A DNA stretch of 21,468 nucleotides from a virus (Duplodnaviria > Heunggongvirae > Uroviricota > Caudoviricetes): the IMG/VR virus record IMGVR_UViG_3300029058_000046; one strand, 5' to 3'. Shown here in pieces: positions 3,184 to 18,965 of the stretch; position 1 is the first letter of the stretch, and every line of letters begins with the position of its first letter. The translations under genes and the position numbers were made by a program. The notes below the pieces were generated by a model. It did not search any database and was not told where the DNA came from. It saw nothing but the letters and a program-made list of their open reading frames with translations.

Positions 3184-3791
3184 TGTACGGAAGCAAGATA
3201 TATCGATCTGACGGGAAGGTCTGGATGTCTCCTTCTTTGTCTCCTATCGTTTTTCAGAGAAAGCAGGTTGTTTCTTTGTCCGGCGGGACAGAGTTTAACA
3301 CCCAAATATCTCCAGATCGTTCACCGATGATTTTTGTTGCCTATTCGAAAGCTGTTTCATTAATAGCCAACAGAATAGTGCGTAACAACCAGGTGATTTA
3401 CAGTTTCGGAGGTCAGGGTAGCGACTCTAGTGCCACGATATACGTATTTTCGAAAGGTATAGCCAAAAAAGAAACTTGGGGCATGAGTTTTTTCAATGCA
3501 CAAGGGGAGGAAATCTATAATACGGCAAATATCCCACTTTCATTTACCTTTCTTAATAATACGGAGTGGAACAGCTCTGGAGGGCATGTTTTTGATTACC
3601 CACCAGCGATAATCCCAACATATGCGAATGTGTTCGCTGTTCCAGTACCGGGCGGAGCCATGACAATGGTTTATGGATATGCGGCATATGGAAATACTGT
3701 TAGCTCGATATTCGTAAACCAACTTAATGGCGGCCATAGTTTTAGCGTAAATGGCAGAGTACCGGTAATAAATAGAAATCTGTATAACTGA
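3183..3791 (+). CDS. Hypothetical protein (202 aa), Ser/Gly/Asn-rich; possible fiber-associated or receptor-binding accessory protein
   Basis: Long ORF coupled to the upstream ORF, same strand as the fiber gene. No catalytic motif recognised. Confidence 0.5.
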   Translation: MYGSKIYRSDGKVWMSPSLSPIVFQRKQVVSLSGGTEFNTQISPDRSPMIFVAYSKAVSLIANRIVRNNQVIYSFGGQGSDSSATIYVFSKGIAKKETWGMSFFNAQGEEIYNTANIPLSFTFLNNTEWNSSGGHVFDYPPAIIPTYANVFAVPVPGGAMTMVYGYAAYGNTVSSIFVNQLNGGHSFSVNGRVPVINRNLYN

Positions 3792-3798
3792 TGAGTAA

Positions 3799-4032
3799 AT
3801 GATGAAAAGATTATTTCTAATAATAGCTGTTGTTCTCTCTCTTACTGGCTGCCAGAAATTGCCGACACCTATATGTTACGGTGAGGCTATCATTGGTGGA
3901 CAGGAGACAGTCATACCCATATATGCTGTTAAAAAAGTGAACGACTATACCTTATACAAAGCGGGTAGTATCTATAACTGGCGATGGGTAGGAGTAGGTG
4001 CTTTCTCATCAGTCCGTTGCAATGCTGAATGA
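3799..4032 (+). CDS. Small lipoprotein (77 aa precursor); possibly a Cor/Llp-type superinfection-exclusion lipoprotein
   Basis: N-terminus MMKRLFLIIAVVLSLTGCQK has a signal peptide and lipobox L-T-G-C. Size and position just downstream of fiber genes match Cor/Llp-type exclusion lipoproteins; the function is inferred, not shown. Confidence 0.6.
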   Translation: MMKRLFLIIAVVLSLTGCQKLPTPICYGEAIIGGQETVIPIYAVKKVNDYTLYKAGSIYNWRWVGVGAFSSVRCNAE

Positions 4033-4113
4033 TAGGTAGGTACACACCTACAATAAAAGGGTGAAATGTGATATAAATCCGCCATCCCGATTTGACTTTT
4101 CATGGAGGAAAAC

Positions 4114-4437
4114 ATGTCGAACGAGATGGCGAGCGTTACAACAGAGCAAGTTGAGCGTATTGCCGCGATCGTTGCTCGGGAGGTTGTTGGCAAATTAGGT
4201 AAAGAGCTACGTGAAGAAATTGGCCAGGAGGTCAATGATCAGCTGAAAACCTACTTTGGTGATATGACCCCGGCGCAACATAGTATTCAACACTCCAATC
4301 TGGACAAACTCCTTAACCGGTTAGATTCCATCTCCAGTGGGTTCTTTGGCGGCATTGTTTCTAAAATAACGTCGTTCATTATTACTGCACTGCTTTTGGG
4401 GTTAGCCGCGTATGGCGTAAAAAATGGACTGCAATAA
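4114..4437 (+). CDS. Holin-like small membrane protein (candidate first gene of a lysis cassette)
   Basis: GGAGG Shine-Dalgarno 6 nt before the ATG at 4114 (the track's ATG at 4102 has no RBS). Hydrophilic N-terminal part, one C-terminal hydrophobic segment (ITSFIITALLLGLAAYGV). Sits immediately upstream of the endolysin candidate. Confidence 0.45.
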   Translation: MSNEMASVTTEQVERIAAIVAREVVGKLGKELREEIGQEVNDQLKTYFGDMTPAQHSIQHSNLDKLLNRLDSISSGFFGGIVSKITSFIITALLLGLAAYGVKNGLQ

Positions 4438-4450
4438 CAGGAGATCAAGG

Positions 4451-5143
4451 ATGAAGACTCCGAGAGGCATTCGTAATAATAACCCCGGTAATCTTGATAA
4501 AGGATCACCGTGGCAAGGTCTGGTTGCGAATCCAGACGAACCGCGCTTTTGCACGTTTAAAGACCCTGTTTGGGGGATTCGTGCGCTGGCGGTGACTCTA
4601 ATTACCTACCACGACAAACGTCGCGCAAAAGACGGCTCAAGTATCGATACCATTCGTGAAGTTATTGAACGTTGGGCACCGCCGAATGAAAACAACACTG
4701 ACGCCTACATTAATGAGGTGTCTAAAGCCGTTGGTGTAACCGCAGACATGATCATCGATCTGCATGATTACGACATCCTTCGACCTTTGGTTGAGGCAAT
4801 CATTCGCCACGAGAATGGTCGAGGTCCACTAAAAACGCTGAACACCTGGTATGCGGCAGAAGTTATTGAGGAAGGTCTGCGTCGAGCCGGCGTCGTTAAG
4901 CCGGTGAAAACCGTGAAGGCTGTTCCTGTAACTAAAGAAACCGCAGGCGCAACTGTCACAGCAGGTATTGGTCTGGCGCAGCTTGCCGATGTTATGCCGC
5001 AGGTTTCCGCTGCTATGGATAAAGCACAAGGTCATATCTCTAGCGGGGATACAGTACGCATCATCTTCGGTATTGCCACTATTGTTGTGGCAGGATTCAT
5101 TGCCTGGTCGCAGGTAAGAAAACACCAGAAAGGGATGGTCTAA
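4451..5143 (+). CDS. Putative endolysin / peptidoglycan hydrolase with a C-terminal hydrophobic anchor
   Basis: AGGAG RBS 8 nt before the ATG at 4451. Conserved-looking N-terminal motif GIRNNNPGNL. C-terminal hydrophobic helix IIFGIATIVVAGFIAW. Flanked by a holin-like gene and a spanin-like pair. The enzymatic family is not assigned. Confidence 0.45.
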   Translation: MKTPRGIRNNNPGNLDKGSPWQGLVANPDEPRFCTFKDPVWGIRALAVTLITYHDKRRAKDGSSIDTIREVIERWAPPNENNTDAYINEVSKAVGVTADMIIDLHDYDILRPLVEAIIRHENGRGPLKTLNTWYAAEVIEEGLRRAGVVKPVKTVKAVPVTKETAGATVTAGIGLAQLADVMPQVSAAMDKAQGHISSGDTVRIIFGIATIVVAGFIAWSQVRKHQKGMV

Positions 5144-5144
5144 T

Positions 5145-5396
5145 ATGCTAGGCAGCCTGATGACAAAGCTAAAAGTTGCTTTGATTACGCTGGCTGCCGT
5201 TCTTTTCGTTCTTGTCGGCGCTTACACGATGGGCGGAAATGCGGCGCGACGAGCAATGGAAGAGAAGGCAAAACAGGAAGACAGAAAACGACTTCAAAGC
5301 ACAGTGGATGTCAAAAATGAAACGGTTAATGAAGTGCGGCAAAAAGATGCCTCTGGTGTTCATCGCGAGCTGTTTGATAAATGGGTGCGTGATTAA
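5145..5396 (+). CDS. Rz-like inner-membrane spanin (i-spanin) candidate
   Basis: 83 aa with N-terminal transmembrane segment (LKVALITLAAVLFVLVGAY) followed by a charged coiled-coil-like region. Start is 1 nt after the endolysin stop. Confidence 0.55.
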   Translation: MLGSLMTKLKVALITLAAVLFVLVGAYTMGGNAARRAMEEKAKQEDRKRLQSTVDVKNETVNEVRQKDASGVHRELFDKWVRD

Positions 5397-5544
5397 GACG
5401 CAGGCTCCAGGCGTGCTATTCTGCGATGCTGCAAATCCTATTTATGTGAGTAGAGAGGATTTTATGACTGAGGAAACGGAGCGACAGTTGCTTATCCACA
5501 ATACGATAGGTGAAAGGCTGTGTGAGTGGGGGCACCTGAACTGA
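5317..5544 (+). CDS. Rz1-like outer-membrane lipoprotein spanin (o-spanin) candidate, starting inside the Rz-like gene in the +1 frame and running past its end
   Basis: Out-of-frame ORF overlapping the 3' part of 5145-5396. Product has a short signal peptide and lipobox (MKRLMKCGKKMPLVFIAS-C). Start codon uncertain (5308, 5317 or 5329). Confidence 0.4.
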   Translation: MKRLMKCGKKMPLVFIASCLINGCVIKTQAPGVLFCDAANPIYVSREDFMTEETERQLLIHNTIGERLCEWGHLN

Positions 5545-5768
5545 GTCGATGATTGATGAGTGGTCTCAGTTTACCTTTTATCCTAAAGATGGCATCTTCA
5601 CTCATATACACGCCTGTTCACTCAAGCTCATGTTGAATCATTTAGTAATTTGATGTAGATTTATTAGGCATCCACGTAAGTGGGCACATACAGGCTACGC
5701 ATCCTCGTAGCCTTCAACCCCGAGAGGGGTGCCGCAATGACACTTGTGTTAACGGCTAAGGTGGACAC

Positions 5769-6152
5769 ATGCTGAACGAGAAACGTTCTATACAAACTAT
5801 TCGCGATTGCACGAGTATTATCGAGACTCATGTGCTGAATCAGCACAAGCTTGAAGTACGTAAGCTCAATAATGACGCTATTGAACCGGAAGACTCACGC
5901 TTCATCGTTACCTTCAAAGACGATGTTGAGCGCGCTGGTGCAAGCGTGAAGCCATTAGCTGAAGCAATTTACCTGAATGGTCGTGTTCGTTTTGTAGTCA
6001 AGCCAGCTAAACAGTACCCTGAGCTGTCTCGTTTTATCGAGGCTTTTTCGGAGGTTATTGAACATTCTATTCGCCGCTTCTTACGCAATCATGGTAGCAT
6101 TGTCAGCACGGTTAAGGCTGATGATTCTGCTACAAAATGGCTCCTACACTAG
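5769..6152 (+). CDS. Hypothetical protein (127 aa)
   Basis: ATG preceded by AAGGTGG Shine-Dalgarno; 3' end overlaps the next ORF by 16 nt. No recognisable motif. Confidence 0.55.
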   Translation: MLNEKRSIQTIRDCTSIIETHVLNQHKLEVRKLNNDAIEPEDSRFIVTFKDDVERAGASVKPLAEAIYLNGRVRFVVKPAKQYPELSRFIEAFSEVIEHSIRRFLRNHGSIVSTVKADDSATKWLLH

Positions 6153-6889
6153 ATAGCGCATATTCAAAAGATCTAAGCGAGTTTCCTCATAAAGGGGAGA
6201 CTCGTGTTGTTCGTTTTGGCTTTCTTATCAATGAAGCCTCCCTCTATAAAATCTCAGAAATTGAAATCATTGAACCAGAAGATGACATTTGCCTGTATGT
6301 CTCTATGGAACTTGTAGGTGCGCGCGACCAAGGCGACCTGAGCGAATTCATCTTAGATCGAGCGGATGAAGATGCCCCTGAAGAAGAGATTATCAAAGAG
6401 GTGCTCCAGTCCGGGCTTCTGGACGAAAACAAAAATACGATCGCTGGTAGGATAGCTCTGCGTGAATATAGTTTTGTTGAAGACGGTAATGAGATCGAAT
6501 GTTACCAGGTAGCCGGTGTCGAAACTGTCAGAGAGCGTCGTCAGCGAGGATTGTGTCACCGTACCTATCTCTTTCTTCTTCATTGGTATGAGCATTTAGT
6601 CTGCGACGATACACAAACCATTCCTGGTGCTAAGATCTGGGCAGGGCCTCTCATGCGAACCGGCGATGTGCGTATATACAATGCCAAAACAGAAACGTTC
6701 GAGGATGTGTTAGGCGAGTACGGGATGGGGAAAGAAACCGGATTTTTGCCGTGGAACAGAGGATTGTTGCTTGATGCAGAGTTAAGCTCTTGGCTCCCAA
6801 ACAAAGTGCAAGTTAACGTTCAGAAATTTATCGTACTTATCATCTCCCGCAAAACAAGAACTCCAGTAGGTTTATACCTAAAAGATTAA
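6137..6889 (+). CDS. Hypothetical protein (250 aa), acidic, no recognised domain
   Basis: Long ORF overlapping the preceding gene, followed directly by a strong intrinsic terminator. Confidence 0.6.
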   Translation: MAPTLDSAYSKDLSEFPHKGETRVVRFGFLINEASLYKISEIEIIEPEDDICLYVSMELVGARDQGDLSEFILDRADEDAPEEEIIKEVLQSGLLDENKNTIAGRIALREYSFVEDGNEIECYQVAGVETVRERRQRGLCHRTYLFLLHWYEHLVCDDTQTIPGAKIWAGPLMRTGDVRIYNAKTETFEDVLGEYGMGKETGFLPWNRGLLLDAELSSWLPNKVQVNVQKFIVLIISRKTRTPVGLYLKD

Positions 6890-6893
6890 AAAT

Positions 6894-6920
6894 CAGGCGA
6901 CTTTGGTCGCCTTTTTTGTT
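6894..6920 (+). terminator. Rho-independent terminator
   Basis: caggcgac-tttg-gtcgcc stem-loop followed by TTTTTTGTT, immediately after the stop at 6889. Confidence 0.75.
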
Positions 6921-7015
6921 AACAGCCATTGATTCTCGCCTAAAAATTCTAAGGCAGCACCTACCATTTAACCTTTACACCACAGCCGTAGGCATTTAGG
7001 CTATATCACATATAA

Positions 7016-7031
7016 GAAAACAAGTTGTTTC
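7016..7031. promoter_or_regulatory. Palindromic motif AGAAAACAAGTTGTTT upstream of the ParA gene; candidate operator
   Basis: Nearly identical copy (AGAAAACAATTTGTTT) at 9946-9961 upstream of the helicase gene. Both are inverted repeats AACAA-N-TTGTT, 34-50 nt upstream of start codons. Confidence 0.3.
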
Positions 7032-7065
7032 AGACGATAATTATATACGCAAAGGGAACTCTCCA

Positions 7066-7734
7066 ATGACCAAGATCTTTGTGGTTGGCGGCACAAAGGG
7101 CGGGCCTGGCAAATCCACCGTTGCCCAGCAAATTGCCGTTTGCCTGAAAGTCAAAAAGAAGAAGAAGGTTTATATCACCGATATAGATATTCAGCGCACG
7201 ACAACGAGCTGGTGTGAAGACCGTCGACAGAACGAAGACCTTGAGCTGATTCCTTTTGCATACGTTCAGGATGACATCATTAAGCACCTAAAATCGCTTC
7301 AGGGTAGAGCTGAGTATGTAGTGGTAGATGCTGGTGGCTTTGACTCCGAAATTCAGCGACAAGCGATGCTGATGGCCGACGTTATCATTATCCCGCTTCG
7401 TCCTAAGCGTCGTGATTTGAAATCTCTGCGTGACATCGATCCTATTATCGACAATGTTCGTAATGTAAACGATAAAGTGAAGGTCCGCGCGGTCATGAAC
7501 CAGTGCCCGGCTTTGCCATCACAAGTGTCTCGCATTCTGGCGGCTAAAGAGATTGTTGAGACGTTTGGCATCGAGTCTGCGCCAGTCAATCTATATAACC
7601 GCAACGTCTATGATGATGCGGAAGAGTCTGGTCGTTCTATCTTTGAAATGACCGGTAGCGAGCGCGACAAAAAGGCGGAAGCCGAGTTTGAAGAATTTGT
7701 AGATTATCTGTTGAGTCTGGAGGAAGAAGAATAA
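7066..7734 (+). CDS. parA: ParA/Soj-family partition ATPase (small, type Ib-like)
   Basis: Deviant Walker A box GGTKGGPGKST at the N-terminus, ~220 aa, acidic C-terminus. Followed by a small overlapping partner gene. Confidence 0.85.
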   Translation: MTKIFVVGGTKGGPGKSTVAQQIAVCLKVKKKKKVYITDIDIQRTTTSWCEDRRQNEDLELIPFAYVQDDIIKHLKSLQGRAEYVVVDAGGFDSEIQRQAMLMADVIIIPLRPKRRDLKSLRDIDPIIDNVRNVNDKVKVRAVMNQCPALPSQVSRILAAKEIVETFGIESAPVNLYNRNVYDDAEESGRSIFEMTGSERDKKAEAEFEEFVDYLLSLEEEE

Positions 7735-8093
7735 TGTCCATGAAAATGGGTGACCTAGCAAAGCGCAAAGAGCCTGATGCACCGGCTAAGAACACAACTC
7801 CTTTGCGCCAACCAGTCAGACCACAGGGACGCCCGACTCGTGGCAAAGAGAAAATTAAAAGCCGCACAATGTCACTGGAGGACGAATACTTCGAACTGCT
7901 GGAGATGATGAAGTTCATCCCTCGCTTCGAGAAGTTCACTCGTTCTGACGTGATTCGAGCAGCCATTTTCCATCTGGCAGAGAAGTCACCGCAGGAAATC
8001 GAGGACATCGTGAAATTGAATGAGGCGATCACCGCTGCCGATGTCACGATGCGTACCGATGAAATCAAACGAGAGTTGATGAAGAAAGGTTAA
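7734..8093 (+). CDS. Small partition partner protein (ParG/ParB-like centromere-binding candidate)
   Basis: 119 aa; start overlaps the ParA stop (TAATG). Basic, probably disordered N-terminus and a C-terminal region (MSLEDEYFELLEMMK...) compatible with a ribbon-helix-helix type Ib partner. Assignment is by context. Confidence 0.45.
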   Translation: MSMKMGDLAKRKEPDAPAKNTTPLRQPVRPQGRPTRGKEKIKSRTMSLEDEYFELLEMMKFIPRFEKFTRSDVIRAAIFHLAEKSPQEIEDIVKLNEAITAADVTMRTDEIKRELMKKG

Positions 8094-8098
8094 AAATC

Positions 8099-8129
8099 AT
8101 GCATTGGCGCGTACATTGCGCCAATGCAT
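8099..8129. terminator. Palindrome between convergent genes; candidate bidirectional terminator
   Basis: atgcattggcgc-gtacatt-gcgccaatgcat: 12-bp perfect stem, 7-nt loop, between the + strand gene ending 8093 and the - strand gene ending 8146. No clear U-tract. Confidence 0.5.
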
Positions 8130-8145
8130 AACTACAGTGTCAGCT

Positions 8146-8913
8146 TTATGCCGCGCTAACACTATGTTCAGTCCTAACCACCCCAACCTTCACAAAAGGG
8201 CTACCGTAGCTTGGTGGCTTCTTGATTAATTTGCCTACATACAGTTTTCTAATATGCTCATCGGCTATTCTGCCAACAAATTCATAACGTTTTGTGTCGG
8301 GGCCAAGAGCTATATCCCTTGTAAAGTACTGCTGAGAACCGGCTTTGACCCAGCATTCAATCTGATAAACTTCCATTATCAGCCCACCATATGTAGCGTA
8401 GGCATATTTGAGATTCTCGTCTCTTGGAACCTTTGCCCATACGCCACGCGTAGCCTCATATAATGCCAGAGCGGACATTCCTGACTTGTAGGTGCTGTTT
8501 AGCAGGAAGGCAAGACCGGCGTGCTCAGGAGCAATTTCAGTTTCCTCTTGCAGCACTAAGTGATGGTAGGCGTCCAGTGATATTCTGCCCATCATGGAAC
8601 CACTTCCTCGTACCTTATTCGTAAGCTCTCCGACCCCCATAAGGTCGATGCATGTCGCCTCAACAAGTTTGGCTGTGGTTTCATCCATACCATGACGAAG
8701 TATATCTATGCCTAATTTTTTATTAGCCAAAAGTTCTTTGATCCGCATGGATTTGGGAGAGTCATCGGGATACTTGATGTGATCGAGACAACGAGTCGAT
8801 TTGCCTTTTCCTATGTAAAACGGTCTTTTCATCTTGTCTTCTGTATCATAGAGACAGTAAACATAGTATTTAGCCTTATCCAATGATCTCGCGTATACCG
8901 ATAAATCGTCCAT
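8146..8913 (-). CDS. GIY-YIG nuclease-domain protein (255 aa) with an unassigned ~160-aa C-terminal domain
   Basis: N-terminal YVYCLYD...RPFYIGKGK...R..H...E pattern matches the GIY-YIG catalytic motif. Only sizeable antisense gene in the partition/replication region. Confidence 0.7.
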   Translation of the reverse strand: MDDLSVYARSLDKAKYYVYCLYDTEDKMKRPFYIGKGKSTRCLDHIKYPDDSPKSMRIKELLANKKLGIDILRHGMDETTAKLVEATCIDLMGVGELTNKVRGSGSMMGRISLDAYHHLVLQEETEIAPEHAGLAFLLNSTYKSGMSALALYEATRGVWAKVPRDENLKYAYATYGGLIMEVYQIECWVKAGSQQYFTRDIALGPDTKRYEFVGRIADEHIRKLYVGKLIKKPPSYGSPFVKVGVVRTEHSVSAA

Positions 8914-9024
8914 TATTGCATCTCTTTGCTACTGACTAATGCGTTCTATTTTACACATAAGTTTTTAATCAATTTAACAGGCTCAAAGTGTAGAGCTTCT
9001 GGGCGTCTAAGACGACAAGTTATG

Positions 9025-9079
9025 CCTGCTTCTGTATATATAAATAATAAGTAACTTATTAAATATATACGGAAGCAGG
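9025..9079. promoter_or_regulatory. ~55-bp AT-rich near-perfect palindrome between the divergent GIY-YIG gene and the replication module; candidate operator or origin element
   Basis: cctgcttctgtatatat ... atatatacggaagcagg: 17-bp arms with one G-T mismatch, around an internally palindromic AT-rich core (aataagtaacttatt). Confidence 0.35.
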
Positions 9080-9195
9080 TCTTTTAAAAGACACCACCAG
9101 AACAACTCCCTTCCGTTTCCACTTCCAAAAACTGCCACCAGTCGCTATCATCCGCTCATTGTGATAAGTAAGTAACTACCTACCAGGTGAGCCAC

Positions 9196-9936
9196 ATGAG
9201 CCAAATCTTTTTCGATACCATCGACAACGACCAGTACGACTTCATGACAGAGTGGAATACCGCTGTTATGGACAAGTGGGTCGCTGAAAACATTGGTTTG
9301 TCGCGCTGTAAAGACGAGGCTGAACTCTTCGAGACGAAGTGGTTTGATTACCGCGACATGCATCCTCTCATGGCCACCTGTCTTTTTACGGAGGCATACA
9401 AACGTCAGTACTCAAATATCATGCTGACGCACGGTCGCGAACACTTTGAAACAGCTCCGTTCACCACCGGGTTAAAACGCCTGCCTTATCAGGAGTTGTC
9501 GACTGCCAATAAAACGTCTCTATGGAAAGCACGCCAGTTTGCTGACCGCTATTGCTGCTCATACGACTACTTTATCTCCACCGTTCTTTCCGCAGCTGCA
9601 CGACGGCTGTGGGACAAGCTGCCGCGCCCACAGCATTTATGGCAGCCAGAGCTGGTTGAGATATTCGAAGAGAAATTAGCCAGACGCGCAACAACCCGTC
9701 TGGATGACTCTCTAGTTAGCTTTAAGCATATGGGAGACATGCAGTTCAACCCGATCCAGGAAAGCTATTTTGAGTGGATTCTGGAGCGTTTACGCACCAT
9801 CCCCCGCAGCAAGCGCATACGCGCAATTTTCTCCGCTATCTGGCTAATGGAAATCGTTCCAGAGCGCCTTATTTCCGCCCACTTTCCAGAAGAACTGGAA
9901 GAAGCACGGCGGTTTATTGATCCCCTATCTAATTAA
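9196..9936 (+). CDS. Hypothetical protein, first gene of the replication module (possible initiator or helicase loader, by position only)
   Basis: AGGTGA RBS 5 nt before the ATG at 9196 (the track's start at 9187 is GTG). Directly precedes the helicase gene. No motif recognised. Confidence 0.55.
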   Translation: MSQIFFDTIDNDQYDFMTEWNTAVMDKWVAENIGLSRCKDEAELFETKWFDYRDMHPLMATCLFTEAYKRQYSNIMLTHGREHFETAPFTTGLKRLPYQELSTANKTSLWKARQFADRYCCSYDYFISTVLSAAARRLWDKLPRPQHLWQPELVEIFEEKLARRATTRLDDSLVSFKHMGDMQFNPIQESYFEWILERLRTIPRSKRIRAIFSAIWLMEIVPERLISAHFPEELEEARRFIDPLSN

Positions 9937-9945
9937 CTAATACTA

Positions 9946-9961
9946 GAAAACAATTTGTTTA
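9946..9961. promoter_or_regulatory. Second copy of the AGAAAACAA(G/T)TTGTTT palindromic motif, upstream of the helicase gene
   Basis: AGAAAACAATTTGTTT, 19 nt before the ATG at 9980; matches the motif at 7016-7031. Confidence 0.3.
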
Positions 9962-9979
9962 AAAAACAAAGGAAAGCAC

Positions 9980-11320
9980 ATGACCGAACTTTGCCATACA
10001 GGACGCGGGCTGTCCGAAGAGTTTGATGAAGATTTCCAGAACAGACTGACGGCATATTTTTGTCGTGATCACGAGTTTCTTACTCGTGCGGGAGATCTGG
10101 TTGTGCCTAGCCAATTTGCCAATGCGGCCAATGCCATATTGGTTAATATGGTTTCGGGCTATTACCGTATGTACAAGAGCGCGCCTTCTTCATCTGCGAT
10201 TCTGGATATGCTTAAGCGTGCGAAACGCGATAAGACCATCCGTGAGGAACTCTTCCCGGATGTTGTTGCTGCGTTTAAGCGCATCCTTGCAGAAAAATTG
10301 TCTGATACCTCGTACATGGTTGACCAGGTATCCACATTCGCAAAAAGTGTAGCGTTTGATGATGCTCTGATTAAAGCTGCTGAACTGAAAGAGAAGGGCG
10401 ACTTTCAGGGGGCGATGGCAATCATGGCCAAGGTTCAGCAGATAGGCTCGAACGAAGCGACCGGAATCTATGACTACTACACCTCCGCAAGTGAGCGATT
10501 GAAAGCGCGTGAATATGAGGCTTCAGAGGAGTATGTGCCAAACAGCATTACAACTGGACTCCCTCTGCTTGATAGATTGCTGTACCAAAAAGGCTGGGCA
10601 AAGCGCGAAATGGTGCTCTTCATGGGTTTTGCTAAATCCGGTAAATCGACCGCAATGGGTGAGTTTTCCATAAACGCTACGCTTGCTGGCTACAATGTTC
10701 TGTATCTCTCGCTGGAGGTTCACACCACCATTTTGTCCGACCGTTTTGATGCAAGATTGTCGGAGACGGAAATGTCCAAGCTGGTGGAACGGCGCGATGA
10801 AGTTCATCGCAAGTTGGCAGAGTTGGGAGCCACGAAGGGGATTGGTAGTTTGTGGGTTGTTGAGCGTCCGTCAGGAAGTATGTCACCGGCAGATCTGGAC
10901 CGTATGCTTAACAGTATGAAAGCCAATGGCATGGTGCCTGACATGGTTGTTGTCGACTACGCAGATTTGATGCGTGCCAGTTATGACCTTCGTGATGATC
11001 GCGCCAACATTCGTAGTATCTACACCGATTTACGTGCTCTTTATGACAAGCATAACGTTGCTGGTATCACGGCGTCGCAAACAAACCGTGAAGGTGGCGC
11101 GTCAGAAGTTGCCACAATGATGCACGCTGCCGACAACATCGAAAAAGTACGTATTGCTGACCTGGTAATAACGATCAACAAAACCGAAGAAGAAGAAGCG
11201 AAAGGAGAGGCTCGTCTCTACTTTGCTGGTTCGCGTAACCAGCAGGGAGGGATCAGCATTCGCGTTAAACAAAACCTCGAACAAATGCGCTTCATTGAGC
11301 GAATCTTAGACGTTACCTAA
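9980..11320 (+). CDS. DnaB-family replicative DNA helicase
   Basis: Walker A GFAKSGKST, SLE motif (LYLSLEV), Walker B-like VVVDYADLM and SQTNRE motif, in the order typical of DnaB/T7 gp4-type RecA-fold helicases. AAGGA RBS upstream. Confidence 0.85.
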   Translation: MTELCHTGRGLSEEFDEDFQNRLTAYFCRDHEFLTRAGDLVVPSQFANAANAILVNMVSGYYRMYKSAPSSSAILDMLKRAKRDKTIREELFPDVVAAFKRILAEKLSDTSYMVDQVSTFAKSVAFDDALIKAAELKEKGDFQGAMAIMAKVQQIGSNEATGIYDYYTSASERLKAREYEASEEYVPNSITTGLPLLDRLLYQKGWAKREMVLFMGFAKSGKSTAMGEFSINATLAGYNVLYLSLEVHTTILSDRFDARLSETEMSKLVERRDEVHRKLAELGATKGIGSLWVVERPSGSMSPADLDRMLNSMKANGMVPDMVVVDYADLMRASYDLRDDRANIRSIYTDLRALYDKHNVAGITASQTNREGGASEVATMMHAADNIEKVRIADLVITINKTEEEEAKGEARLYFAGSRNQQGGISIRVKQNLEQMRFIERILDVT

Positions 11321-11327
11321 AAAATAA

Positions 11328-11348
11328 GCGTGGAGAACACCTCCACGC
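11328..11348 (+). other. Perfect 8-bp hairpin (gcgtggag-aacac-ctccacgc) between the helicase stop and the primase gene
   Basis: Inverted repeat read directly. It contains the GTG that the ORF track uses as the primase start (11330), so that start is unlikely to be real. No U-tract. Confidence 0.35.
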
Positions 11349-11401
11349 TTGATTCATTGGTGAAACAACTTTTCTTTTGCCAAACCACAAAAGAAAAACA
11401 C

Positions 11402-12583
11402 ATGAGCCTTTATGTTATATCAACATTTAGGTTGGTCACAATATTGCCTGTTAAAAGTGGAATTATCGTGAGCGAGCTGAAAGAGCTAATTACCGAATTA
11501 GATTTTGAACAATGGTTGGATACTGAAGGTATCGTTTATCGACGTGGAGGCGTGAGTACTCGCGGTCGTGAAGTGAATATCAAGGAGTGTCCGGTATGCG
11601 GCAGCTCCAACTGGAAGGTATATTTCAATCTGACCAGTGGCGTCGGTAAATGCTTCGCTGGTGATCATCCCGAAGAGATTCAGTTCAATAAGCTGGTCTT
11701 CCTCAAGCACTACAGCGGTAAATCACGACGACAGTTCGAGGAATATGTGCAGAACGCTCTTCTTTCCCAGGGGTGGGCACCAAAGAAAGAAGAGATAGTG
11801 CTTGCAAGCACAGTCGAGTTAGAGGGACCAGTTGCACTCCCTCGTCATTACGATCTTCCTATAGATGGCCATCTTCCAGACTATCTGGTTGAACGAAATA
11901 TATCGCCTGAAATGGCAAAGTATTTTGACCTACGATACTGCGTCGAAGGCAAGCACGCTTATGTAGATCCGTATACAGATCAGGTTAAAGGACAGATTTT
12001 CGATATGCGAATACTGATACCGGTTTACGATCTGGATGGGGTAATGAAGACATTTCAAGGACGAGACATTACCGGTACAGCAGAACGCCGCTACCTCTTT
12101 CCTATGCAGCTTCCAGCTTCAGGTAAGTTTCTCTACAACGGCCACAATGCAGTCGGCAAACAGACTGTAGTTGTCTGTGAGGGGGCGTTCGATGTTATGG
12201 GGGTCAAACGAGCTATTTTTGACGAAGAAACATTACGCGATTACGTGGAACCAATAGGAACGTTCGGGATGCATCTATCTGGTAACACCACTCAGGATGC
12301 AGAAGATCAGTTGGGCGCGTTCCTGACGCTCAAGGCGCGTGGATTACGTAATGTGATCATGATGTGGGATAGTGAAAAGCAAGCTATACGAAACACTATG
12401 GCCGCAGCCAGGCGACTGACCAGTATCGGTCTTAATGTGAAAATTGCATGTTTGGGCGAGGAAGGACTCGACCCCGGCGATGCGACCCCGGGGCAGATTA
12501 TCAAAGCCTACTATTGCGCAAAACCTTACTCACGACAGCTTGAACTTTTAAGCAAGGTAAAAGGCATAGCAGCATTAGTTTGA
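11402..12583 (+). CDS. DNA primase (zinc-ribbon plus TOPRIM domain)
   Basis: Zinc-binding motif CPVCGSS...GKCFAGDH and TOPRIM-like acidic motifs (VVVCEGAFDVMGV, EEGLDPGD). Start uncertain: ATG 11402 or GTG 11468; 11330 sits inside a hairpin. Confidence 0.75.
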   Translation: MSLYVISTFRLVTILPVKSGIIVSELKELITELDFEQWLDTEGIVYRRGGVSTRGREVNIKECPVCGSSNWKVYFNLTSGVGKCFAGDHPEEIQFNKLVFLKHYSGKSRRQFEEYVQNALLSQGWAPKKEEIVLASTVELEGPVALPRHYDLPIDGHLPDYLVERNISPEMAKYFDLRYCVEGKHAYVDPYTDQVKGQIFDMRILIPVYDLDGVMKTFQGRDITGTAERRYLFPMQLPASGKFLYNGHNAVGKQTVVVCEGAFDVMGVKRAIFDEETLRDYVEPIGTFGMHLSGNTTQDAEDQLGAFLTLKARGLRNVIMMWDSEKQAIRNTMAAARRLTSIGLNVKIACLGEEGLDPGDATPGQIIKAYYCAKPYSRQLELLSKVKGIAALV

Positions 12584-18718: not shown

Positions 18719-18793
18719 GATGGTGTAGCTCAGCGGTAGATCAGTTGGCTGTTAACCAACTGGTCGGTGGTTCGAATCCACCCACCATCGCCA
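18719..18793 (+). tRNA. tRNA-Asn (anticodon GUU), CCA encoded
   Basis: Manual fold: acceptor gatggtg/caccatc, anticodon stem gttgg/ccaac with loop CTGTTAA, T-arm ggtgg-ttcgaat-ccacc, discriminator G, CCA. The D-stem has one mismatch. Confidence 0.75.
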
Positions 18794-18798
18794 ATTTA

Positions 18799-18885
18799 GG
18801 GGAGTTAGTCCGTAGAGGTAGCGGTGTAGACTGTAAATCTACTGTCATGGCGACTCGGGTGGTTCGACTCCATCACTCCCCACCA
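18799..18885 (+). tRNA. tRNA-Tyr (anticodon GUA), class II with long variable arm, CCA encoded
   Basis: Acceptor ggggagt/actcccc, anticodon stem-loop gtaga-CTGTAAA-tctac, ~15-nt variable arm, T-loop ttcgact, CCA. Starts 5 nt after tRNA-Asn. Confidence 0.8.
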
Positions 18886-18889
18886 AATT

Positions 18890-18965
18890 GCCGGTTTAGC
18901 TCAGTTGGTAGAGCAGTCGCTTTGTAAGCGAATGGCCAGCGGTTCAAGTCCGTTAACCGGCACCA
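18890..18965 (+). tRNA. tRNA-Thr (anticodon UGU), CCA encoded
   Basis: Canonical D-arm tagctcagttggtagagc, anticodon loop TTTGTAA, T-arm agcgg-ttcaagt-ccgtt, acceptor gccggtt/aaccggc, CCA. Starts 4 nt after tRNA-Tyr. Confidence 0.85.

Follow-up and report, generated by a model that had tools for sequence, protein, structure and literature searches.

A two-gene cassette with a GNAT-fold protein and a structured leader RNA in a replaceable slot of SSU5-like phage-plasmids

A compact cassette of two overlapping genes, termed A and B here, is located at positions 5,769 to 6,920 of a 21,468-nucleotide stretch of Caudoviricetes DNA (IMG/VR record IMGVR_UViG_3300029058_000046), which is called the window below. 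The window covers part of the genome of an SSU5-like phage-plasmid, and the 3.3 kb of it that were tested are 100% identical to the Escherichia coli plasmid pM160133_p3 (NZ_CP022167.1, 113 kb). According to a structural model, the product of gene B is a strongly diverged GNAT-fold acyltransferase with a recognisable coenzyme A (CoA)-binding loop, and acyl-CoA-dependent activity is predicted for it. Judged from the sequences, the pair is a GNAT-based two-gene module outside the GNAT/DUF1778 family of toxin-antitoxin (TA) systems. We consider that it could be a mobile toxin-antidote or abortive-infection module, in which B would be the effector and A the neutraliser, with a probability of about 0.4.

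The literature searches turned up no description of the pair, and wherever it is annotated it bears the label "hypothetical protein". In the papers searched, there is likewise no account of the GNAT fold of B, of its GNAT-like partner, of the RNA elements or of the behaviour of the slot, while the two PHROG families are already known. SSU5-like phage-plasmids are common in clinical Enterobacterales and also spread resistance genes, and the A-B pair offers a concrete candidate for the means by which these low-copy elements secure their stability or keep competitors out.

The gene pair, its folds and its slot

Gene A (5769–6152, plus strand, ATG start) encodes a basic protein of 127 aa with an isoelectric point (pI) of 8.8, and gene B (6137–6889, plus strand, ATG start) encodes an acidic one of 250 aa (pI 4.75; family median 5.1). 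The open reading frames bear out the arrangement described in an earlier, sequence-only reading of this DNA, namely two genes of these lengths that overlap by 16 nt and lie between the spanin pair and the ParA gene. Both proteins have full-length hidden Markov model matches in PHROG, A to phrog_2594 (E 7.9e-46) and B to phrog_3307 (E 8.1e-98), each annotated as "unknown function", and 40 relatives of A and 33 of B were found in Enterobacterales. Since they have these matches and dozens of homologues, A and B are real genes. The B family is small, because its profile retrieved just 46 matches among 1.84 billion representative proteins.

The sequence-only reading could assign no motif to either protein, and this holds for the sequence libraries (Pfam, NCBIfam and PADLOC). 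B has no match in Pfam or NCBIfam at E <= 1, curated GNAT models (Acetyltransf_*) included, and A is likewise without a Pfam match. PADLOC-DB v2 gave nothing for B and, for A, a single 22-residue match to PDC-S39 (E 0.013) that was judged to be noise; profile searches of PDB sequences returned noise only, and no sequence relationship between A and B could be detected by hhalign. The statement does not hold for structure. The structure prediction that had been called for was run for both proteins, and B, far from being featureless, turned out to be a GNAT-fold enzyme, and A GNAT-like.

B was modelled by AlphaFold2 with 26 homologues (mean pLDDT 70, pTM 0.71), with good confidence for residues 21–150 and poor confidence for residues 159–231. 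The model displays the element order of the GNAT alpha/beta fold (beta1-alpha1-alpha2-beta2-4-alpha3-beta5-alpha4-beta6-7), to which an N-terminal beta-hairpin and a C-terminal extension are added. The beta4-alpha3 loop, R135-Q-R-G138-L-C140, fits the GNAT pyrophosphate-binding motif Q/R-x-x-G-x-G/A; the family consensus of this loop is [RQH]-x-x-G-h-[GASC], and many relatives carry the canonical G-x-G/A. In addition, the B profile has weak matches (E 2e-8 to 1e-3) to GNAT-bearing polyvalent-type proteins of ~1400 aa with ParB-like nuclease domains, and the match in one of them (P0098) coincides with its Pfam Acetyltransf_1 region. The A model consists of an alpha/beta core (residues about 5–110) that resembles the GNAT fold but has no conserved cofactor loop, followed by a disordered C-terminal tail.

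Across 36 relatives of B, down to 16–20% identity, P3, Q124, Y144, D157, Q160, W168 and W206 are invariant, and M1 is kept in at least 90% of them, so that the N-terminus reads M-[AS]-P. The invariant residues of A are R6, Q9, T10, T15, R31, I46, E65, Q82 and P84. The overlap (6137–6152), in which the end of A (...KWLLH*) lies over the beginning of B (MAPTL...), is retained at 16 nt in five diverged alleles (loci L033, L034, L035, L038 and L039; L numbers denote the loci compared), and because of it the A terminus W-L-L-H* and the B start M-A-P-T-L are jointly conserved. M-[AS]-P is also preserved where the genes do not overlap, for example in Acinetobacter. As gene B has no Shine-Dalgarno (SD) sequence at working distance and begins 16 nt before the end of the A stop codon, it is probably translated by coupling to A.

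The two genes keep together over a wide range of elements. A is directly upstream of B in 26/26 loci retrieved by the B profile, and adjacent A-B genes are annotated on further SSU5-like plasmids and on a Klebsiella IncFIB/HI1B plasmid. Plasmids of 110 kb from A. baumannii carry a homologous pair of 108 and 240 aa (hhalign 96.8% for A and 98.6% for B); on these comparisons, the pair is linked from Enterobacterales to Acinetobacter. In a P2-like prophage (L027), the cassette lies between gpA and an Ogr-like gene plus the portal and terminase genes, which corresponds to the gpA|gpQ hotspot where old and tin of P2 and many defence systems are found (PMC9122126). In lambdoid PhiR12 phages it adjoins the integrase gene and has no leader; there B is frameshifted and A intact. 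On the Klebsiella IncFIB/HI1B plasmid it is part of an island bounded by IS1 and IS5. In a Pantoea chromosome A and B are intact within a decayed SSU5-like fragment; of the backbone genes looked for there, none could be detected. Among 5426 complete E. coli genomes, the allele of the window occurs in 78, always on plasmids.

The two genes are not equally frequent, however: 363 enterobacterial plasmid records contain an A homologue, versus 263 with B. The surplus corresponds to about 96 P1-like phage-plasmids with A alone (e.g. D6 orf106 and RCS47), a figure estimated from the records. A is at least as frequent as B in every genus, and no B-only locus was seen. The orphan A genes of the ~96 P1-like plasmids, such as D6 orf106 (L004 4989–5339) and that of RCS47, are 44% identical to A and keep all its invariant residues. 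They have neither B, nor leader, nor C-terminal tail, and are located between hot/humD and pmgU.

The slot that holds the cassette was delimited by blastn of the window against L005 (phage Cyrano), L032, L002, L033, L036 and L001, together with megablast. It is about 1.4 kb long (about 5532–6958): homology to relatives with other cargo stops at 5524–5531 and resumes at 6959, and in the two most distant comparisons the 3' junction falls at 6956–6965. The cassette has a promoter, a leader and a terminator of its own and occupies a replaceable slot whose junctions are fixed; it is indeed the self-contained unit at a module boundary that had been proposed. The defence, anti-defence or exclusion role suggested for such units is conjectural for this one, for which PADLOC gave no credible match. 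Its cargo was surveyed in 475 SSU5-like plasmid records that match the region around the slot. The window's own A-B allele is present in 55 of them, and other records hold A-B alleles of 77–80% or 28–41% identity. A GNAT + DUF1778 TA pair, on the opposite strand and between the same junctions, occupies the slot in roughly a third of a 60-record sample spread over the 475. In MF554642.1, aac(6')-Ib-cr lies in or beside the slot, so these junctions admit resistance cargo too. The Salmonella plasmid NZ_CP149263.1 has in it a single, very acidic orphan protein of 183 aa (L036 1284–1835, minus strand); this protein, which is found in some Salmonella SSU5-like plasmids, has no match in Pfam.

The synteny comparison suggested earlier, which was to show whether the cassette is variable cargo, therefore gives a divided answer: alternative cargo does occur on near-identical backbones, but the pair is not rare cargo, being present in most SSU5-like elements, and the variability is mainly allelic. 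Backbones whose ParA proteins are at least 99% identical carry B at 100%, 80% or 34% identity, and distant backbones (ParA 66%, helicase 80%) retain the pair with B at 53–59%. Consequently, the pair has long been established at this site, with alleles that diverge rapidly. The promoter and leader of the window are shared, at 97–98% identity up to the start codon, with L033 and with 13 or more plasmids of E. coli, in which a different allele follows. Recombination thus takes place inside the conserved leader, which, together with a hairpin inside B, seems to provide a natural point at which alleles are swapped.

Promoter, leader RNA and hairpins

The intergenic region upstream of A measures 224 bp (5545–5768), in agreement with the ~220 bp reported before, and the strong SD reported with it was also found (AAGGTGG, 5758–5764). 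Instead of the two stem-loops described there, four hairpins and a conserved promoter are present. The promoter is sigma-70-like (5633–5661, plus strand) and consists of a -35 element TTGAAT (5633–5638), a 17-nt spacer and a -10 element TAGATT (5656–5661). Its score is 8/12, and the threshold of the consensus scan was 9/12; the pattern TTGnnn + GTAGATTT precedes all cassettes that have the leader, whether the context is SSU5-like, P2-like or chromosomal. From this conservation we infer that the site is an active promoter, at which transcription of the cassette would start. The Acinetobacter pair (L037 3200–3460, NZ_CP061518.1) is without the enterobacterial leader; upstream of it an inverted repeat, ATGTAGA...TCTACAT, contains the GTAGATTT octamer of the enterobacterial -10 region, which may be a coincidence in AT-rich DNA.

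The structured 5' leader (5668–5768, plus strand, ~100 nt) comprises a variable hairpin H1 (5672–5683), the hairpins P2 (5693–5712), P3 (5717–5730) and P4 (5731–5756), and the SD. Wherever the leader occurs, the 135 bp upstream of A have moved along with the cassette. Within P2, the 14-nt motif GCATNCTCGTAGCC (5699–5712) is near-invariant: it was found in 26 of the first 31 loci, and its carriers include SSU5 and PhiR41_1, whose proteins are just 33–41% identical. Downstream of P4 follows the invariant block CGGCTAAGGTGGA[AC]ACATGC, and the base 3' of the ATG of A is always C, though codon 2 encodes L, H or R. A scan of IMG/VR yielded 24 complete leaders; an A-family gene lies downstream in all 23 that have a readable frame, and the frame after the remaining one is cut off by the end of its locus. 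That scan used a pattern of 14 specified bases, by which 95 of the 119 new loci were chance matches, and only those with the SD motif are informative.

The same set of hairpins was obtained in 13/15 leaders, each folded separately, and the folding z score of the leader against shuffles is -3.2. P3 is paired in 96.8% of cases, with compensatory changes in four of its six pairs, and its covariation score exceeds those of 500/500 shuffles and of all slid controls. In P2 the sequence and the register of the 5' arm vary between alleles with pairing retained; because of this shift, P2 is only 63% paired in a fixed alignment register. RNAalifold also gives an alternative pairing (GCAU:AUGC and GCCU:AGGU) that would hide the SD and the start codon of A, and the segments involved show two substitutions only, both C-to-U changes that preserve G-U pairs. 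Our hypothesis is a translational switch, in which the invariant leader segment GCAUNCUCGUAGCC would either close P2 or, alternatively, base-pair with the AUG and the SD, and so probably gate the translation of A.

Two other interpretations of the leader were tried and rejected. A tRNA-like or otherwise known RNA is not supported, as ARAGORN identified only three tRNAs, at 18.7–19.0 kb, and no Rfam covariance model matched over 5633–5768, where sub-threshold PhrS and MicX hits near the terminator were all that was returned. H1 is not an operator co-evolving with A, since identical H1 sequences (TTGACG..CGTCAA) stand beside different A alleles (L025–L029, L039), and very similar A proteins come with different H1 hairpins (L006 vs L029). 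Two variant leaders were also observed. In L026 (7480–7620) the P4-SD segment (GGAGAGGCCAATG[TC]GGCCCAC[GA]GCT.AG) is tandemly duplicated, with a degenerate SD in the first copy. On the Klebsiella IncFIB/HI1B plasmid (L039 3480–3600) the promoter, H1 (TTGACG..CGTCAA) and the SD are kept and two unrelated hairpins replace P2–P4; the invariant P2 motif is thus not indispensable.

A further hairpin lies inside the 5' end of B. It was found by a scan for terminator-like structures as a 12-bp stem followed by a U-rich tract (6177–6205, plus strand), and begins 25 nt past the stop codon of A. RNAfold predicts a strong hairpin at about this position in 10/12 alleles, and a weaker one in L033. Its pairs covary although the encoded amino acids change: the pair is G-C where the residues are E...R (GAG/CGU), A-U where they are K...C (AAG/UGC), and G-U for E...C, the last deduced from codons in two proteins. 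This hairpin may be a partial terminator or attenuator, or a coupling device that keeps A above B, and would then lower the output of B relative to A. Like the leader, it has no match in Rfam, and the two together make up an uncatalogued cis-regulatory RNA with clear covariation.

The cassette ends in an intrinsic terminator (6895–6920, plus strand; AGGCGAC-TTTG-GTCGCCT + TTTTTTG) with a 7-bp GC-rich stem, a TTTG loop and a T6 run. Every context has a terminator at this place, but its sequence is not the same in each. It had been called the best of the window; it is real and clean, but in a scan of the first 20 kb it is one of the three best, and "best" is arguable.

Possible roles of the pair

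Could the pair be a toxin and its antidote? The arguments for this are the tight coupling of the two genes, their compactness, the diversification of alleles, the occurrence in hotspots, the alternation with a GNAT TA pair in the slot, the lack of another annotated TA system, and a decay that favours A. As to the lack of another system, the annotation of the 113-kb plasmid pM160133_p3, identical to the window where tested, includes no TA pair and no other GNAT. In the mechanism that we propose, B would be an acyl-CoA-dependent transferase acting on a cationic protein or small molecule, which is more likely than tRNA as the target because B is acidic; the tRNA-acetylating GNAT toxins (TacT, AtaT) are, we take it, basic. 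A would be its small, basic, GNAT-like and obligate partner, forming a complex with B as neutraliser or regulator, and the outcome would be plasmid addiction, abortive infection or both. Elements would swap alleles through recombination in the conserved leader and at the junctions of the slot. It is a speculative extension, and on balance rather improbable, that the pair represents an undescribed class of toxin-antidote or immunity modules, in which a cryptic GNAT effector is held by a catalytically dead, GNAT-like and paralogue-type partner and by a riboregulatory leader and attenuator, the leader is the handle by which phage-plasmids, P2-like phages and lambdoid phages swap specificity alleles, and the orphan A genes of P1-like phage-plasmids are "anti-addiction" antidotes in conflicts between co-resident phage-plasmids.

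Several observations weigh against a toxin-antidote role. Nearly all SSU5-like elements have the pair at this site, as would also be expected of a backbone function, and its replacement by a TA pair is circumstantial evidence. The orphan A genes might serve an unrelated role. The C-terminal third of the B model is of low confidence, and the cofactor-loop glycine is gone in a minority of distant B relatives. In contrast to the classical antitoxins of type II, no DNA-binding fold can be recognised in A, and the acidity of B is unlike the tRNA-acetylating GNAT toxins, if these are basic as we presume. Neither PADLOC matches, nor profile similarity of B to KacT, nor similarity of A to DUF1778 antitoxins was found.

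A different explanation is that the two proteins are the subunits of an acyltransferase that is not toxic. Its substrate would be a protein or small molecule of cationic nature, such as a polyamine, a compound resembling aminoglycosides or microcins, or a basic host or phage protein, and the benefit would lie in lysogenic conversion or resistance rather than in addiction or immunity. We regard this as unlikely, since it does not account for the strong diversification of alleles where the backbones are identical, for the reciprocal replacement of cassette and TA pair, for the orphan A genes without B or for the elaborate translational control. Nor do we think it probable, and here the chances seem lower still, that the pair is an anti-defence system. 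In that case B would inactivate an immune protein of the host by acetylating it, A would be a subunit for targeting or regulation, and allelic diversity would track the diversity of host defences. AcrVA5 acetylates Cas12a and would be the analogue. The GNAT fold of B is established, its alleles evolve fast, and the profile search does reach the GNAT-bearing polyvalent-type proteins; but these matches are weak and at least partly reflect the generic GNAT core, the cassette is found in sites known for defence cargo, it persists in a decayed chromosomal remnant, and its promoter is of the housekeeping type and not placed for early infection.

The position beside parA, common to most SSU5-like elements including distant ones (ParA 66%), would be expected if the pair had a core maintenance or regulatory function of these phage-plasmids, such as partition, copy number or the lysis-lysogeny decision. 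Nevertheless, many fully related elements have other cargo instead of the pair, the pair is also found in integrative P2-like and lambdoid prophages, on the IncFIB/HI1B island and on Acinetobacter plasmids, and its alleles diverge far faster than the backbone. Such a function is improbable, and we give it less credence than an anti-defence role. Of these readings, a toxin-antidote or abortive-infection module is the one that we prefer.

Neighbouring genes and comparison with known systems

The gene order around the cassette is tail fibre, holin, endolysin, Rz/Rz1, A, B, ParA, a 119-aa gene, a GIY-YIG gene and replication genes, and the local order is identical in the phages SSU5, PhiR41_1 and Cyrano. 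Upstream of A are Rz (5145–5396) and a second spanin frame that overlaps it and ends at 5544; ParA (7066–7734) is downstream of B. The 119-aa gene after ParA (7734–8093) is labelled "RelE/ParE putative toxin" in the annotation of Cyrano and has no Pfam match here; the label is doubtful, and the product is more likely a partition adaptor. The GIY-YIG gene (8146–8913, minus strand) encodes 255 aa with a LEM-3-like GIY-YIG domain (Pfam E 5.5e-7). It is present in some near-identical backbones and missing from others (L009, L011, L015, L020–22), and in this it behaves like a mobile insert of the homing-endonuclease type, placed between par and rep genes. Three tRNA genes (Asn-GTT, Tyr-GTA, Thr-TGT) are clustered at 18719–18965, and the reference plasmid NZ_CP022167.1 has a fourth, tRNA-Ser, close to this cluster. 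That plasmid also carries, at 3593–11556 and 87105–90396, a type I restriction-modification system with a DUF4268 gene, and metG, apbC, dfrA51, thyA and nrdAB, a metabolic and defence load that is unusually large for a phage-plasmid.

Among known systems, old, tin and the other anti-phage systems that occupy the gpA|gpQ hotspot of P2 (Rousset et al. 2022, PMC9122126) resemble the cassette in being compact and self-contained and, for the copy in L027, in its site between gpA and the portal gene; the cassette differs in being absent from the PADLOC models. With protein N-acetyltransferases of the Hat1 and NatD type, B shares the fold only, at 6–13% sequence identity; these are eukaryotic chromatin enzymes, and a functional link to B is not implied. 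Type VII TA systems (e.g. HepT/MntA), in which an enzyme antitoxin modifies the toxin, are likewise two-gene modules with one modifying enzyme. By analogy, a reversed arrangement in which B acetylates and neutralises the basic A is formally possible, but the common orphan A genes without B argue that A is not a toxin.

The GNAT/DUF1778 type II TA systems (TacAT, AtaRT, KacAT and ItaRT) are similar in consisting of a small gene followed by one for a GNAT-fold protein, in an overlapped or coupled operon, in being borne by plasmids and prophages, and in occupying the same slot in SSU5-like relatives. The same operon design is seen here, where the small gene A is coupled to the GNAT gene B by a 16-nt overlap, with a single promoter and a single terminator. 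However, two defining features of the family were looked for and not found: B shows no homology to the TacT/AtaT/KacT clade, as its profile is not similar to that of KacT, and A is not a DUF1778 ribbon-helix-helix antitoxin, having no Pfam match and an hhalign value of 0.1% against the Cyrano antitoxin. For this reason the pair is placed outside the family. B differs further by its 250 aa, its acidity, its N-terminal beta-hairpin and its C-terminal extension, and A by its alpha/beta GNAT-like fold in place of a ribbon-helix-helix one. Finally, the cassette is apparently regulated through a structured RNA leader rather than through a known operator-binding antitoxin.

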